A stretch of 64,000 bases of DNA, taken from the IMG/VR virus record IMGVR_UViG_3300036766_000837, positions 50,932 to 114,931 of that record, one strand, 5' to 3'. Below, one piece after another: positions 4,195-59,750 of the stretch. The position numbers were made by a program, and so were the translations under genes. The number at the start of each line of letters is the position of its first letter. The stretch's first letter is position 1. Source of the stretch: a virus. A model generated the notes under the pieces. The model ran no database searches, was not told the DNA's origin, and saw only the letters and a list, made by a program, of their open reading frames with translations.

Positions 4195-4839
4195 TTATAC
4201 ACTAATCAGACTATCCATATCTTGATCAACAAAGAATATTTCATATACCAACCCATCTATATTTTGATTTATTAGATATTGTTCACTTATTAAACTATCC
4301 ATACTATGATTAATCAAAAATGTCTGACACACCAATCCCTCTATATTTTGACCTATCGAGAACCTTCTAAGTAACAGACTGATGACATTTTGAGGTTTTG
4401 AAGACTGTAGAAGTTTCAAACTGGTTATACTTTGAGTAGCCCTAAATCGGCAGAGTATCAACCCCTCTATATTTTGATTTATCCAAACATGTCCAATAAT
4501 ATCTACTATCATATCTGAATATTTATATACTTGATAGAAAATATTTGCCAATACAACAGAATATTGATGTAATGGTAATCCCCGGATTGAACTATCAAAC
4601 CTATGAGTTCTTCTAATATTATAAGGAATTAATACATCTATTGCCGAAAAAATGGTAGGTTTCTTCAAAAGAGAATCAATATTAGAATATATAGATACCT
4701 GTCCAGAAATATATGAGGAAAGATATGTTTCAATATTTTTATACCCCACTAACACCCTAAGACGATGATACAAAGTATATGTAGTTAACCCTAATTTTAT
4801 ATTAGAATTAACACTAGCATAAACTATTGAACGTCTCAT
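4195..4839 (-). CDS. Virion protein with 14-aa repeats related to 17632-22845
   Basis: NQNIEGLI / GQNIEGLV / NHSMDSLI / NQNIDGLV / DQDMDSLI at multiples of 14 aa. Confidence 0.6.
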   Translation of the reverse strand: MRRSIVYASVNSNIKLGLTTYTLYHRLRVLVGYKNIETYLSSYISGQVSIYSNIDSLLKKPTIFSAIDVLIPYNIRRTHRFDSSIRGLPLHQYSVVLANIFYQVYKYSDMIVDIIGHVWINQNIEGLILCRFRATQSITSLKLLQSSKPQNVISLLLRRFSIGQNIEGLVCQTFLINHSMDSLISEQYLINQNIDGLVYEIFFVDQDMDSLISV

Positions 4840-7088
4840 GTTGCCGCCCTACCCAATATTTCATATATCTCTTGTTCTCCCGCTTTAGACCTAAGAGTTA
4901 AACTCTGTGTAAAATTAGAACTATCCATTCCCAAATTTATTGCGGTAATATGGAAATTCCTATTACGCAATCCTAATCTTCCATAATCTATAATAACCAT
5001 ATCTCCGAGTTGTAGATGAGGAACAGCAAAAGTGTTGGCATTCACAAATATAATTGGAGACGAATACACCGCAATAAGATAGTCAAGGAGTTGCTGGGCA
5101 TGTTTTTTCGATTGAACCCATTGTAAATTAAGTTCCAACTTTTGCCGACCATATTTCCTTATGGAATCATCGTTCTGCTTCTTCTTGGTATCAGATGTTG
5201 AATCCTGTTTGAATGCTTTGCCAATTATGATAAAGAATTCGGGAAGATTTTCAATGGCTTTCTTTATCTGCGCGCCCTCAATGATTATCGTCCCGTTATA
5301 ATTATTTAATACATATATTTTTGCACTAGCAGGACTAAAATCGAATGAGATAACCTCGGCATATGCTTCGTTCGTTAATATATAGGTGATATTTTTAGCG
5401 GGGCCGACAGTATAATCTATATCGAATTCTCTAATTTCATATACTATGGTGGTTGGGTCGTGGGAAGCAGGGTTGGTATTTAATTTTCCACGTTCACAGT
5501 TATGTAATCTATTGTTATCCCTGTCATTATCACTATATTTTATTATTTCACTATTAATTTTGAAATAACCTTCATCTGGCCAATCTTCTGAATCAACAAC
5601 AAGGATACTGGTTTCAGTTGTATCCACTACTTCCGTAGTGTTGGTGGCTCTAAGCACCGTAGGATCATCTGCTTCCCACAACGCAACCGTCTCAGACAAC
5701 TCAGGAATGATATATTCCAATGAAAAATCATTTTTAAGGAGTTCTGTTGACCACTGTGCTGTCTGAATCTCGTTATCCTCCATTAAGGTCTTAACTGGCA
5801 CCATATCTGGATATGCCGGGTCGGTTAAGGATTCCTTTATCTTAAAGTTGAAGTATCCATTTTCATCAAAATAATATACACCTAAATCTATAACCGCTAT
5901 CTGCTGTAGGAAGTCCCAAAATGTTTGACCTTCAGTTGTCCAAATAAGATTATGTCCGGGAACACAAACCAGTTCATCTATATTTACGATTGTTGCTCTA
6001 TCGTGTTCTGCCAGATCATTATAGTTCAGCGTTGATGTGTCAATTATGAATTTTAGGATTCCCGCCTTTTCCGCGATATCTCTAACAATATCTGATATGA
6101 GCCATTTATCATAAAGCATTTGGGGGATTTCTGTTTCTTGCAAAATCTTTGACATATCCCTCAAGGAAACTTCCATCGTGGCTGTATTGTCAGACATACT
6201 CCAAGTATCTACATAAAATTCTCCTTGCTTCATATATTCATAAGTGGTATCCGCAAGTTTAAACCCTGAATATATATCAAATTTAGTATTTTGAAGGAGC
6301 AAGGAGAAGTATGGACCAGTCTCATACTCATTATTATATTTATCTTCACTGTTATCAAGACTTATGCTTGCAGAGTTGGCAGAGGAGATTCCGATAGGAT
6401 TCACCGTTGTACTTGAAAGATCACGTTCCTTCCTTACACTCCATGAAATTACATCATCTGATACATCAACCTCAATGGCAGCATCAATCTCATATATCTG
6501 CGCTCTCCCCGGAATCGAGATTGAATTAACTTTGACTCGGATTGCATTTATCTCGGTTGTGTATGTTCTATTTACAATATCAGACCATGTAAGCCCATTA
6601 GCAGTTTGTAGATATATATCTGTCTTATAGTCTCCTGGATCATAGTTAGTAACTGCGTTATAATAACTTCCACCAATTTTTATATCTATAGTTACTGAGG
6701 TTATCATGGAGACAAAAATATCTGAAGTAAGGAGAATTTTATTACAGGTAACCGGCTCTGGGTATGTAACCTCAATCTCTAATGGCGGCGAAAAATCTCC
6801 ACCAGAATCAGATTCCGTATCACTGGACCAAGGAACCCTATTATCCAATTCATCAGTTGGCCAAGTCCTTGCCCAATCATCTGTGCGATAATAATTCGAA
6901 TCCGTTACGGCAAATTTCATCGAAGGATCATATACTCCATCCACAATCCTATTTTTCCTTACATCATTATCACATGTAACTACAGGTTCATATACTCTAT
7001 TATTGGAAAGATACATTATTATTTTTGATTTTGGATAGACACCTGACGCTGCTAATGCGGTTTCGAGGTCATCAGTGATTATCTGCAT
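4836..7088 (-). CDS. Baseplate hub / tail tip (Tal-like) protein
   Basis: Second gene after TMP; YYFDENG.F.F, SI.KYG, PHLQLGD motifs of siphophage hub proteins. Confidence 0.7.
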   Translation of the reverse strand: MQIITDDLETALAASGVYPKSKIIMYLSNNRVYEPVVTCDNDVRKNRIVDGVYDPSMKFAVTDSNYYRTDDWARTWPTDELDNRVPWSSDTESDSGGDFSPPLEIEVTYPEPVTCNKILLTSDIFVSMITSVTIDIKIGGSYYNAVTNYDPGDYKTDIYLQTANGLTWSDIVNRTYTTEINAIRVKVNSISIPGRAQIYEIDAAIEVDVSDDVISWSVRKERDLSSTTVNPIGISSANSASISLDNSEDKYNNEYETGPYFSLLLQNTKFDIYSGFKLADTTYEYMKQGEFYVDTWSMSDNTATMEVSLRDMSKILQETEIPQMLYDKWLISDIVRDIAEKAGILKFIIDTSTLNYNDLAEHDRATIVNIDELVCVPGHNLIWTTEGQTFWDFLQQIAVIDLGVYYFDENGYFNFKIKESLTDPAYPDMVPVKTLMEDNEIQTAQWSTELLKNDFSLEYIIPELSETVALWEADDPTVLRATNTTEVVDTTETSILVVDSEDWPDEGYFKINSEIIKYSDNDRDNNRLHNCERGKLNTNPASHDPTTIVYEIREFDIDYTVGPAKNITYILTNEAYAEVISFDFSPASAKIYVLNNYNGTIIIEGAQIKKAIENLPEFFIIIGKAFKQDSTSDTKKKQNDDSIRKYGRQKLELNLQWVQSKKHAQQLLDYLIAVYSSPIIFVNANTFAVPHLQLGDMVIIDYGRLGLRNRNFHITAINLGMDSSNFTQSLTLRSKAGEQEIYEILGRAAT

Positions 7089-16316: not shown

Positions 16317-16661
16317 CTAGTCCAGAATTTTTTGGCAATTTAAGGTTACATGCGTTACTGTTGCCCAACCCCTTTGCGACCTTATACCAATTATGTTAAA
16401 TTCTCCATCATCTACAAATTTTCCATATCTATCTTTTATATTTCTTATCTGGTCACTATTATTTATATCAGTATCGTTCGTAAAAATCAGATAGGAAGTG
16501 GGATTTTGAATCCTTCCAACCAATCTTTCCTCGGCTCTGGAAGGCATATAATCGCATTTTATTGTACGGTCATATTTCCACTCCGAACTTTCCTGTCCAG
16601 AATCATTATAATATATTTCTTTTTCCCAAATTTCGGCCTTAAATGGTAAGTGTGCCCACAT
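16317..16661 (-). CDS. Head-tail stopper (closure) protein
   Basis: 114 aa, beta-rich, ND.GQ...W pattern; gene order. Confidence 0.65.
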   Translation of the reverse strand: MWAHLPFKAEIWEKEIYYNDSGQESSEWKYDRTIKCDYMPSRAEERLVGRIQNPTSYLIFTNDTDINNSDQIRNIKDRYGKFVDDGEFNIIGIRSQRGWATVTHVTLNCQKILD

Positions 16662-17558: not shown

Positions 17559-17631
17559 TTTAGATCACCTCCTTGTAATATTTGTTGTAATCTCACCTTA
17601 GATTCTACCTCCTATCTGATTTTTTCTCCAA

Positions 17632-56900: not shown

Positions 56901-57103
56901 TTACTTGAGGCATCATACTCGGGAGATGCAAGATGGGCAAAAGGCTGATGAGTGACTTACGTTACTGTGTCATTTGCGACGAGTATTACGAGCCGATGAC
57001 CCGTATCGGAATCTACGCCCAGGTGTGGGATAATGGTAAGGCATGGGCATTTTATCGCTGTGATAATTGTGGAGATAGGTATGCAGAACCATACGAACCC
57101 TGA
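53951..57103 (+). other. Second run of small hypothetical ORFs with GC-rich patches
   Basis: ORFs at 53951, 54424, 54690, 54953, 55300, 55758, 55940, 56133, 56468, 56659, 56948; frequent ATGA overlaps. Confidence 0.6.
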
Positions 57104-57263
57104 GTCCAACTGTTACTATATATGTAATACCCATTTTGCGCCAAAATTATACCTGCGATTTTGTACTTGGCCCGTGCGCCCAATATATTTTGATATATAC
57201 GATACCGGCGAAGTTGTCTGGAAACGAAACATATAGGAAAGTTTCCTAACTATCTCAGGTTAC

Positions 57264-57295
57264 AAAAAAAGACCGGGGGATAATCTCCCCCGGTC
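57264..57295 (-). terminator. Terminator at convergence of plus and minus operons
   Basis: GACCGGGGGA-GATTA-TCCCCCGGTC followed by a T run on minus. Confidence 0.85.
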
Positions 57296-57323
57296 CCTGA
57301 CCAGAAAGCGTCAAGCTGGGCGG

Positions 57324-57473
57324 CTAGGATTTTCGGGCCGACCCGTTCAGCCAAGCGACACGCGCAGCAGCATCATCCTCTGAGGCATGGTCGGATTCTG
57401 GGTGCCACTTGCCGGTGGGATCGTAGAATCCCACCGTCCACAAACGCGCTTCAGACTTGATGTAGACGTACAT
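57324..57473 (-). CDS. 49-aa small protein (absent from ORF track)
   Basis: MYVYIKSEARLWTVGFYDPTGKWHPESDHASEDDAAARVAWLNGSARKS; SD GAGGGGG. Confidence 0.75.
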   Translation of the reverse strand: MYVYIKSEARLWTVGFYDPTGKWHPESDHASEDDAAARVAWLNGSARKS

Positions 57474-57612
57474 TCTCGGCCCCCTCTCTACCCAGGCTGA
57501 TGCGCCACTCCTGCACTTGCGAAACGGTCAGGCCCGTGTGCATCAGGGCGCGACAGTCGATGCGGAAGCGCATCGGGCATCTTCTACCGTGTTCACACTT
57601 CGGCGTTTTCAT
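57451..57612 (-). CDS. 53-aa hypothetical protein
   Basis: SD GGAGGAGG; MKTPKCEHGRRCP... Confidence 0.55.
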   Translation of the reverse strand: MKTPKCEHGRRCPMRFRIDCRALMHTGLTVSQVQEWRISLGREGAENVRLHQV

Positions 57613-57675
57613 CTCCCCCTCCTCCCCTCACGCCCCCCGGTCCCGGCCGGGGAGCGTCAAGCTGGGCGGTGGCGG

Positions 57676-57912
57676 TCAGGCCGTCGTCACCGGATCGTTC
57701 AGCGCTTCCGTGTATCCCCGCCCGAGCACCATGACCTCAACAAACTCCTCGACCATTCCCGGCTTGATGTCATACTCCGCTTCTCCGACCTGCTTGCCGG
57801 GCGCATCGGGGTAGGGCGAAACGGACCACTCCCGGACATGTTGCCCGTCGATGTCGATGCCGGTTCTGATGAGACCCGTTCCCCGGATGAAGTGTCGCTC
57901 CACCTCTCCCAC
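57676..57912 (-). CDS. Hypothetical protein
   Basis: SD GGAGGAGG; bounded by intergenic repeats. Confidence 0.6.
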   Translation of the reverse strand: MGEVERHFIRGTGLIRTGIDIDGQHVREWSVSPYPDAPGKQVGEAEYDIKPGMVEEFVEVMVLGRGYTEALNDPVTTA

Positions 57913-57921
57913 CTCCTCCCC

Positions 57922-58026
57922 TCACGCCCCCCGTTCTTTGCACGACCGCCAGAACACGATGAGGCCCAAGAATATCCATATCCCGATGATGGCCCATGAT
58001 GCTGCGACCAGCACGTAGGGAATCAT
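57922..58026 (-). CDS. 34-aa single-TM peptide
   Basis: MIPYVLVAASWAIIGIWIFLGLIVFWRSCKERGA; ATGA overlap. Confidence 0.6.
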   Translation of the reverse strand: MIPYVLVAASWAIIGIWIFLGLIVFWRSCKERGA

Positions 58027-58220
58027 CGCGCGCCTCGTTCTATCTCATCAAGTGATGGACAACGAGCCGCACGACCGTCTACCACGTCGAGCCCGCGTCG
58101 ATTCTTTGTAATGCTTGCGGCCTCAAGTCTGACCCTGCTCTTTCTTTCCGAAAAAGTTGGGCCATCGTACCAGGATGCGAACATAGCCGTTTTACCGATA
58201 ACTATTCGATACCCTGTCAT
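58023..58220 (-). CDS. Hypothetical protein
   Basis: SD GGGGGAG + ATG at 58220. Confidence 0.55.
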   Translation of the reverse strand: MTGYRIVIGKTAMFASWYDGPTFSERKSRVRLEAASITKNRRGLDVVDGRAARCPSLDEIERGAR

Positions 58221-58238
58221 AACTCCCCCGTTCAGTCT

Positions 58239-58828
58239 GCAATCCCGATAGGGGACTCGCATCTTGTTGGATGGATAGCTGATTATTGACTTGCTTTGCT
58301 TGATGCTACTTCTTTGCGCCCACCTTCCTGGTCGTGGTGGACTTCTTACGAGTTACTTTCGCGGTCACTTCCGACTTCGCGGGTCGGGCCGGAACCTTGA
58401 CTTTCGGAGCCGACTTCGACATCACGATGACCGGAACCTCGTTTCCTTCGGCGTCTTTGAACCGAAGGATTGTGAAACTTGCCTCGTGGTCCCCACGGCC
58501 TAGCCTTGCGACTTCGTTGGCCGCTCCGGGCGTCAAGGGCCGCCCGTTCGATCCACCGTGCCGAGTTAGCTCGATGGGACATACCTTTGCCTCATTGGGG
58601 AGCATCGGCAAAGACCCGTCTTCTAGCTGCAACAGGTCCTCTACCTTCCCCACCTTGCCCACGACGATCTTCGTGGGAACGTCGGCCGTCGAAAGCTTGA
58701 GGCTTCCTACGGTCTGTTCCACCCACAAGCGAACGGCCGACTTGGGCCGTCCACGCTTGAGCTGGCCTAGTATGCGTGCCATCTTGACACCTTTCCACGT
58801 CAAGATGCGAGTCCCCTATCGGGATTGC
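58239..58828. repeat. Perfect 28-bp inverted repeat pair (58239-58266 and 58801-58828)
   Basis: GCAATCCCGATAGGGGACTCGCATCTTG and its exact reverse complement. Confidence 0.97.
58306..58782 (-). CDS. Basic protein with AT-hook-like KRGRPK and Lys/Ala/Thr-rich tail; putative DNA-binding protein
   Basis: SD GAAAGGTG + ATG at 58782; composition. Confidence 0.7.
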   Translation of the reverse strand: MARILGQLKRGRPKSAVRLWVEQTVGSLKLSTADVPTKIVVGKVGKVEDLLQLEDGSLPMLPNEAKVCPIELTRHGGSNGRPLTPGAANEVARLGRGDHEASFTILRFKDAEGNEVPVIVMSKSAPKVKVPARPAKSEVTAKVTRKKSTTTRKVGAKK

Positions 58829-58950
58829 TTGTGCAGCGCTTGCCTAGCTGCATTGCATACCGGATTAGTAGTCCCGTTCGGGCCGTTCCGGTGATGGCCC
58901 TCTGACGGCCGAATCACCGGCGGCTAGCCGGGGTGCTTTCGCACACCCCA

Positions 58951-58979
58951 AGCGTAGTCACTCGCGCGGCCGATTGCAA
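58951..58979 (-). promoter_or_regulatory. Sigma70-type promoter for the GC-rich cassette
   Basis: TTGCAA-N17-TACGCT. Confidence 0.7.
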
Positions 58980-59089
58980 GTCTTTTTCCGTAACCGTTCA
59001 CGTGGCCTAGACAGGAAACTTTCCTAATCATTGCGATTGTAGCAATACAATCAGCCCGTAAGAATGCTCAAGATTTATTGAATCAAACA

Positions 59090-59750
59090 TTGGCCCAAAT
59101 AAATGGGCAAAAAAGATTATAATGATTGATTATAATTTTGGCCCATAGATTGCCGCGCGGGTTTATGGGTTGAGATTATTGGACCAATTATTGCCACAAT
59201 GATTGTGCGCGATTGATTATATGAACTCCATTATTTGTTCCAAATATTGGCGCAAAGAGATTATAAGAGAGTCATACAAAGTATAGGGTAGAATCAATAT
59301 TTCGCGCGAAAAGTATAGACTATACCTTATACAGCTTACTATCCAACTTATCTACCTCGGCATCCGCTCAACCATCGGGGAAATACGATGGCCGCCTTCA
59401 TTTTTGGGCCAAATAATGGGCAAATCTATTGTTTATGATTATTTAAGTTGTTATACGAAGTATAATAGGTGAATTATTGGGGTAATAATTGGACCAATCA
59501 ATATAGGAGATTATATGGGCAATAATTGCGTGAGACCCCCGTATACCCTGGAATGATTTATTTATTCCATATAGGGATATTTCTTGGCCTCCAGAATGCC
59601 ATCCATGTCATTTCCGCCAATCGCCATCAATCGCCCGGACCATAGTTTGAGCCAATGATTTAAGGATTGGGATTATAAAGCCCTTCTATAAGTATCTGGA
59701 ATATTAGGTATTATCTTTCCCGCCAAATTTTGGACCAATTAATAGGCACA
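59090..59750. repeat. Non-coding array of TTGGNCCAA palindromes at 12-bp period
   Basis: Copies at 59090, 59138, 59179, 59235, 59247, 59404, 59477, 59489, 59647, 59730, most with a degenerate partner 12 bp away. Confidence 0.75.

Follow-up and report, generated by a model that had tools for sequence, protein, structure and literature searches.

The gene for a 158-amino-acid (aa) basic protein in this phage (58306-58782, minus strand) is bracketed by a perfect 28-nt inverted repeat. The explanation we favor, with a rough probability of 45%, is that the two arms pair in the RNA as a helix between the 5′ and 3′ ends of the gene's message, with consequences for processing and/or translation and probably with cutting by RNase III. 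The window, which is the whole 64,000-nt stretch analyzed, covers bases 50932-114931 of a 114,931-bp IMG/VR virus record that is classed as linear and ~85% complete. The arms flank a single cistron in its untranslated regions, share strand and orientation, and have no terminator-like site between them. If the explanation is true, the locus would be a compact element in which pairing of the ends displaces a hairpin from the start codon; it could couple the timing of translation to the finishing of the transcript, and could also cut the message of a single gene out of an operon.

The upstream (5′) arm, at 58801-58828 on the minus strand, is separated from the start codon by 18 nt, and a local hairpin uses its last 7 nt (58807-58801) in the 5′ strand of the stem. 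The downstream (3′) arm, at 58239-58266 on the same strand, is separated by 39 nt from the stop codon and by 18 nt from the ATG at 58220, our assumed start of the next ORF. The earlier note had described these two flanks as exact complements, and they are: 28 of 28 positions pair, with 534 nt between the arms and neither a mismatch nor a G.U pair. No such match arose in 100 dinucleotide shuffles of the window, and the repeat is the longest inverted repeat of the 114,931-bp record (the second longest has 16 bp). The arm is 57% GC and self-complementary at 8 of its 28 positions, which is about chance and leaves it without internal dyad symmetry, and complementarity breaks off sharply at both outer ends. 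No further copy of the arm occurs elsewhere in the genome at up to 8 mismatches, nor does any 11-mer of it, and an exact search with the 23-nt core of the arm showed it to be absent from viral, genome, and metagenome collections. No direct repeat or target-site duplication is visible in the flanks adjoining the arms. A second candidate for 5′/3′ pairing (16482-16504 and 17602-17624) was dropped, as its downstream arm apparently lies inside coding sequence. Another inverted repeat (6213-6238 and 6717-6742; 24 of 26 positions complementary, 478 nt apart) lies wholly inside a 750-aa ORF (4836-7088, minus strand) and is, by a rough estimate, far beyond chance.

The GC-rich island and its genes

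The record is that of a tailed phage and has a GC content of 40.6%; its genes include those for a portal, a head maturation protease, and a polymerase exonuclease-like protein. A WhiB-family gene (G000:C1:29249-29419, in the other half of the record and outside the window; 34.3 bits, above the cut-off) hints at an actinobacterial host for this AT-rich phage. Searches for DNA similarity to cultured phages, in near and distant modes, returned nothing, and blastn and tblastn searches of 50,697 phage records with the 158-aa protein, two neighboring ORFs, and one protein relative (P0003) gave no match. Nor were related loci found in viral, metagenome, and genome collections, for which the queries were the protein, a second relative (P0002), the family alignment, and two flanking genes. 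By these searches, the phage is a singleton. The locus is present in one public run, a sediment metagenome (DNA), in the form of Logan contigs, and no RNA dataset with the locus was found among the sequencing runs listed.

The gene lies in a GC-rich patch of 1.77 kb (~57248-59012; 57-61% GC), one of several such patches in the phage. All credible ORFs of the patch are on the minus strand: six small orphan ORFs, of which the gene between the arms is the most upstream and the five others (58023-58220, 57922-58026, 57676-57912, 57451-57612, and 57324-57473) follow within 57324-58220. The ORF at 57922-58026 encodes a 34-aa hydrophobic peptide with two weak PHROG matches (E 0.03-0.17), and beyond these, Pfam, PHROGs, NCBIfam, and PADLOC gave no match for any of the six. 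GC3 is 0.71 in the gene between the arms and 0.66-0.76 in four of the five other ORFs, and the segment between the arms has the same composition (GC and GC3) as its flanks. The ORF at 58023-58220, with a GC3 of 0.44 against 0.66-0.76 in its neighbors, is of doubtful coding status. It has two candidate starts, namely an ATG at 58262, which lies in the arm, lacks a Shine-Dalgarno (SD) sequence, and opens a 79-aa frame, and the ATG at 58220 behind GGGGGAG.

We place both arms on one polycistronic minus-strand RNA, because no terminator-like site lies between them and the next terminator, a hairpin with a T run at 57298-57268 (minus strand), is the first downstream of both. The 3′ spacer between the stop codon and the downstream arm (58267-58305, minus strand; 39 nt, 38% GC) holds no terminator and includes a pyrimidine stretch at 58271-58278. 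Upstream, a leader of 184 nt (58829-59012, minus strand; 61% GC) has several predicted hairpins, no convincing ORF, and no Rfam match; a wider Rfam scan over 57000-59700, at gathering thresholds and at E up to 5, gave nothing credible. A promoter-like site with 10 of 12 consensus matches (59243-59216, minus strand) is housed in an AT-rich, gene-free spacer (59090-59500) with repeated TTGGNCCAA-type units, and a second -10-like sequence, TACAAT, was read by eye at 59041-59036 (minus strand).

The patch has borders of its own. A near-palindromic 13/14-mer sits at its upstream edge (59013-59026) and a partner at its downstream edge (57234-57247), just past the terminator. The 13-mer at these borders reads AGGAAA[G/C]TTTCCT, and its upstream copy comes right after the -10-like TACAAT, at an operator-like position. 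With a leader, six orphan ORFs, an intrinsic terminator, and the 13-mer borders, the patch (57234-59026) looks self-contained. In addition, two direct repeats lie at gene junctions: a 22-nt repeat (57618-57639 and 57912-57933) that comprises a stop codon and a GGAGG-type SD sequence, and a 17-nt repeat (57307-57323 and 57653-57669) whose copies each follow a stop codon. They frame two units, the ORF at 57676-57912 on one side and the ORFs at 57451-57612 and 57324-57473 on the other, which suggests cassette duplication or exchange via short homology at the direct repeats. To judge by its sequence, short duplications have evidently shaped and reshaped the island.

The protein encoded between the arms has a pI of 10.4, an RGRP segment at residues 10-13, and a tail rich in Lys, Arg, and Thr. 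Pfam, PHROGs, NCBIfam, and PADLOC gave no match for it. One relative came from an exhaustive HMMER search against 1.84 billion representatives, and a second from a profile search. These relatives (P0002 and P0003) are 136 and 144 aa long and ~35-39% identical to the query, and each is on a single short Logan contig (1.1 kb and 1.4 kb), which makes a family of three members. The alignment of the three keeps a Met-Ala start, an invariant RGRP, IVVGK, and ARLGR. The ATG at 58782 is taken as the start because both relatives begin with the same Met-Ala, and this comparison supports both the gene and its start codon as real. The composition of the relatives, rich in Lys, Asn, Ile, and Phe, suggests that their coding sequences are AT-rich. 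The 158-aa product is probably DNA-binding, and its RGRP segment may resemble the RGR motif of Lsr2, for which Pfam gave no match. An AlphaFold2 model built from the three sequences had a mean pLDDT of 40, too poor for a fold search; an Atlas search with the protein gave no usable match, and no longer fused forms of it were found.

Predicted competition between the start-codon hairpin and the end helix

Just downstream of the upstream arm, the RNA can form a local hairpin (58780-58807, minus strand) of 10 pairs, nine Watson-Crick and one G.U, at -12.7 kcal/mol. Its stem pairs 58807-58798 with 58789-58780 and contains the ATG (58782-58780), and its 8-nt loop (58797-58790) carries the SD-like GGAAAGG, much as the earlier note had it when it described a hairpin that buries the start codon and loops out the SD sequence. 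The hairpin and the upstream arm overlap by 7 nt (58807-58801), so that the two pairings exclude each other, as had also been proposed. By our estimate, the chance that the last 7 nt of the arm, together with three more pairs, would form a hairpin exactly on the start codon is of the order of a few in a thousand.

Folding of the growing transcript, which the earlier note had called for, was done on prefixes starting at 59208, 59030, or 58850 with varied 3′ ends. In prefixes that end before the downstream arm, the pairs of the hairpin have probabilities of 0.95-1.0, and the AUG is unpaired with a probability of 0.08 and the SD sequence with 0.94. When the leader is folded alone, almost no pairing involves the first 21 nt of the upstream arm. 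Once the downstream arm is included, the probability of the helix is ~1 and that of the hairpin 0.02, while the AUG is unpaired at 0.42 and the SD sequence at 0.37. SD accessibility drops because the helix gains a 7-pair extension, in which the SD region (58798-58791) is paired with the pyrimidine stretch at 58271-58278 beside the downstream arm. For the 621-nt RNA (z = -6.0), the MFE and centroid structures both contain the 28-bp helix, which dominates thermodynamically: the duplex is worth -57.2 kcal/mol, or -65.6 with the extension, against -12.7 for the hairpin alone. Direct refolding of the hairpin state (-211.1) into the helix state (-270.3) meets a low computed barrier of ~3.6 kcal/mol. 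Provided that transcription of the operon is as predicted, the 28-bp helix should form.

The order of events thus came out as had been suggested, with the hairpin first and the helix replacing it over a small barrier, and the proposed switch appears physically plausible from these calculations. The claim that translation is blocked on the nascent RNA and then released fares less evenly. The block is seen in the folds, with the hairpin near a probability of 1 before the downstream arm and the helix near 1 after it; however, the release is modest and ambiguous, since the unpaired probability goes from 0.08 to 0.42 for the AUG but down from 0.94 to 0.37 for the SD sequence. The 30-nt ribosome site costs 15.5 kcal/mol to open before the helix forms and still 11.4 after, and the latter value is kept after a simulated cut in the middle of the helix. 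The predicted output is therefore not a clean release: the AUG opens, the SD sequence partly closes, and the site stays structured, which leaves the direction of control ambiguous. In addition, occlusion of this start site is ordinary for the phage genome. In local context, opening it costs 13.4 kcal/mol, against a genome mean of 9.8 (standard deviation 4.1), and it ranks 26th of 147 crude gene starts, in the mid-range among GC-rich contexts.

Perfect double-stranded RNA of 28 bp is a textbook RNase III substrate, and the 28 uninterrupted pairs exceed the roughly two helical turns needed for an RNase III site; cleavage is plausible on this length. The phage record has no Ribonucleas_3_3 match, and a host RNase III is assumed here, as are the transcript ends. 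Under the reading that we favor, a single minus-strand transcript would run from the promoter in the AT-rich spacer to the terminator at 57298-57268 and carry both arms. While the gene is being transcribed, the 10-bp hairpin would hold the AUG. The emerging downstream arm would then dock on the 21 free bases of the upstream arm and displace the hairpin, and the arms would pair as a perfect 28-bp helix that closes the cistron of the RGRP protein into a 534-nt loop. The ribosome site would be remodeled, with the AUG freed and the SD sequence partly masked by the pyrimidine stretch beside the downstream arm. Were RNase III to cleave the helix in the cell, the cistron would be separated from its leader and from the five downstream ORFs, and expression of the protein could move up or down. 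A fuller version seems unlikely to us, namely that the start codon stays locked until the RNA just past the gene's own stop codon has been made, that this RNA invades from the 21-nt toehold, and that RNase III then releases a single-gene mRNA with paired ends, uncoupled from leader and downstream genes.

Origin of the repeat and competing explanations

Several observations weigh against an RNA-level role. An unbroken run of 28 Watson-Crick pairs, without a single G.U or mismatch, fits a young DNA duplication better than a long-selected RNA helix, and the other short repeats of the island look like recombination scars. The predicted effect on translation is small and mixed, and, as noted, the occlusion of the start site is unexceptional. 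Comparative support for the helix is nil, with no relatives of the phage DNA found in the collections. Because the repeat is free of mismatches and G.U pairs, it probably arose recently by an inverted duplication at the DNA level.

It is possible, and nearly as likely as the RNA end helix, that the repeat is simply a neutral scar of DNA rearrangement. Here, insertion or inversion of the gene segment, perhaps through template switching or the repair of staggered breaks, would have left 28 bp duplicated in inverted orientation, and the pairing of the RNA would be an unselected by-product. The perfect identity of the arms speaks for this, as do the 22-nt and 17-nt direct repeats at gene junctions and the 14-nt border repeat of the same island, the GC content and GC3 that the segment between the arms shares with its flanks, and the tiny protein family in a singleton phage. 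However, a scar does not account for the exact position of the hairpin on the start codon, built from the last 7 nt of the arm and three further pairs. No reading frame is restored when the segment is removed in silico, and thus nothing points to insertion into a gene. Moreover, a 28-bp helix within one transcript would have physical consequences whatever its origin. If the scar explanation is true, the locus would illustrate how strong RNA structures can arise by accident from short duplications in mosaic phage islands.

We regard it as improbable that the 590 bp form a mobile cassette of ultra-small size, in which terminal inverted repeats enclose one gene, as in the MPMEs of mycobacteriophages or the mobile insertion cassettes of Bacillus, and which is moved by its own product or by a transposase acting in trans. 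The layout of repeat, SD sequence, single ORF, and repeat is compact enough for such an element, the product is basic and probably DNA-binding, and the unit is in the size class of MPME1, an element of actinobacteriophages that spans 439 bp and has inverted repeats (PMC3029335); such phages would agree with the host suggested by WhiB. On the other hand, the unit has no flanking target duplication and is present in a single copy in the genome, and the core of its arm was not met with in any of the collections searched. With three members, of which each was met with on one contig, the protein family does not look like that of a spreading element. The phage has no DNA or protein similarity to any cultured phage, in a collection that should include MPME carriers. 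There is also no match to a transposase-like family and no longer fused form of the product, and excision of the unit in silico restores no ORF.

The earlier note had raised recombination between the arms as a DNA-level alternative, in which the segment 58267-58800 would be an invertible switch whose flip takes the gene out of the reading of the operon promoter. Perfect inverted repeats of this length are typical of invertible segments. The minimal processing segment for homologous recombination is roughly 23-27 bp, which puts 28 bp at about the minimum. In the flipped state, a long antisense frame (186 aa) would be joined in frame with the next ORF; however, this frame is the wobble-aligned one, and opposite GC3-rich genes that frame tends to remain open. 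The statement that no recombinase is in the window stands and can be extended: the whole 114.9-kb record, 85% complete, has no match to Resolvase (PF00239) or Phage_integrase (PF00589), that is, to a serine or tyrosine recombinase, and RecT gave no match either. The arm, at 8 of 28 self-complementary positions, lacks the dyad symmetry of hix-, gix-, and fim-type sites, and the contigs show a single orientation without joints, in data of a kind that drops rare variants. Inversion was thus tested weakly, on contigs only, and found no support, and we hold it to be very improbable.

Likewise, the arms could be a pair of identical protein-binding sites, at which a regulator, perhaps the encoded protein itself, loops the DNA around its own gene. 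The enclosed gene does encode a basic protein with an RGRP motif, and short palindromes form an array next to the operon, which has a palindromic 13-mer at each border. The arm, though, is GC-rich at 57% and not dyad-symmetric, and AT-hook-type motifs bind AT-rich minor grooves. Perfect 28-mers are not required for operators, and there is no third copy. Taken together, this makes an operator pair highly improbable.

Lastly, that the repeat is an assembly artefact is hardly credible, even for a record that is a metagenome assembly and a repeat whose 28 nt are close to common k-mer sizes. An 18,331-bp Logan contig (depth 12.4) from a different assembler spans 57000-59539 in the identical arrangement, running across both arms in the same order without a break or joint; the word length of that assembler is k = 31, longer than the repeat, and the sediment run may be the window's own source sample. 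Over 2.5 kb, the window and the contig differ at three bases (58958, 58960, and 59077), none of them in the arms or the gene. The first two, which are adjacent, are in the leader, and the third is in the AT-rich spacer; they are not compensatory in the predicted leader fold.

Comparison with known systems

To our knowledge, pairing between the ends of an mRNA has been documented in few cases in bacteria and phages, and is usually short and repressive. The kind of mechanism proposed here is thus known, while the combination would be new: a perfect helix of this length, placed within an operon, that displaces an AUG hairpin from a toehold. Published work shows that long-range mRNA pairing acts in vivo with complements far shorter than 28 bp. 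In Bacillus subtilis, a 14-bp pairing of the hbs 5′ UTR with the 3′ UTR acts in vivo (Braun, Durand and Condon 2017, PMC5737220), in Staphylococcus aureus the pairing of the icaR 5′ and 3′ UTRs acts together with RNase III (Ruiz de los Mozos et al. 2013, PMC3868564), and activity in vivo is likewise described for anti-SD-like 8-nt sequences that lie downstream of a ribosome-binding site at a distance of several hundred nt (PMC12697547).

The hbs message resembles the phage locus in that complementary 5′ and 3′ flanks enclose the gene of a small basic DNA-binding protein. Its pairing adjoins the ribosome site and governs the access of nucleases, and the phage helix is likewise next to the ribosome site. 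Unlike the phage locus, hbs relies on 14 bp, involves RNase Y and RNase J1, and is monocistronic. The phage pairing is a predicted one, a perfect 28 bp inside a putative polycistronic unit, and would compete with a start-codon hairpin. In icaR, a pyrimidine motif of the 3′ UTR pairs with the SD region and creates an RNase III substrate, and the stretch at 58271-58278 does the same in the predicted fold of the phage RNA. The icaR pairing covers the SD sequence itself and represses, whereas the main phage helix lies upstream of the SD sequence and is predicted to free the AUG.

At the DNA level, the closest counterparts are the MPME elements. Related phages carry MPME1 at different sites, with 6 bp added at one end (PMC3029335). 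Like MPME1/2, the phage unit is less than a kilobase long, has inverted repeats, and carries one small ORF of unknown function, and MPME1/2 come from actinobacterial phages. The phage unit, by comparison, is single-copy and has no sequence similarity to them.

With respect to processing, the RNase III sites of T7 early mRNA are local hairpins between genes, and long-range stalks are known for rRNA. The phage helix is long-range, unlike the T7 sites, and closer to the rRNA stalks, in which long double-stranded RNA pairs the sequences on either side of the product; as there, cleavage would release a defined RNA. We know of no long-range RNase III stalk that encloses a protein-coding cistron in a phage.

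Finally, the hok/sok system of plasmid R1 combines the same two elements, a local hairpin in the nascent RNA and pairing of the ends in the full-length RNA. There, a metastable hairpin forms in the nascent RNA, and 5′-3′ end pairing keeps the full-length mRNA inert until its 3′ end is trimmed. The product, Hok, is a toxin of roughly 50 aa with an overlapping mok frame and an antisense Sok RNA, whereas the phage gene encodes a 158-aa basic protein of soluble type rather than a small hydrophobic toxin. Should the fuller version of the end helix prove true, with the start codon held until the RNA beyond the stop codon has been made, the locus would be an activating switch triggered from the 3′ end, the reverse of hok, coupled to an rRNA-style excision of a protein-coding message.
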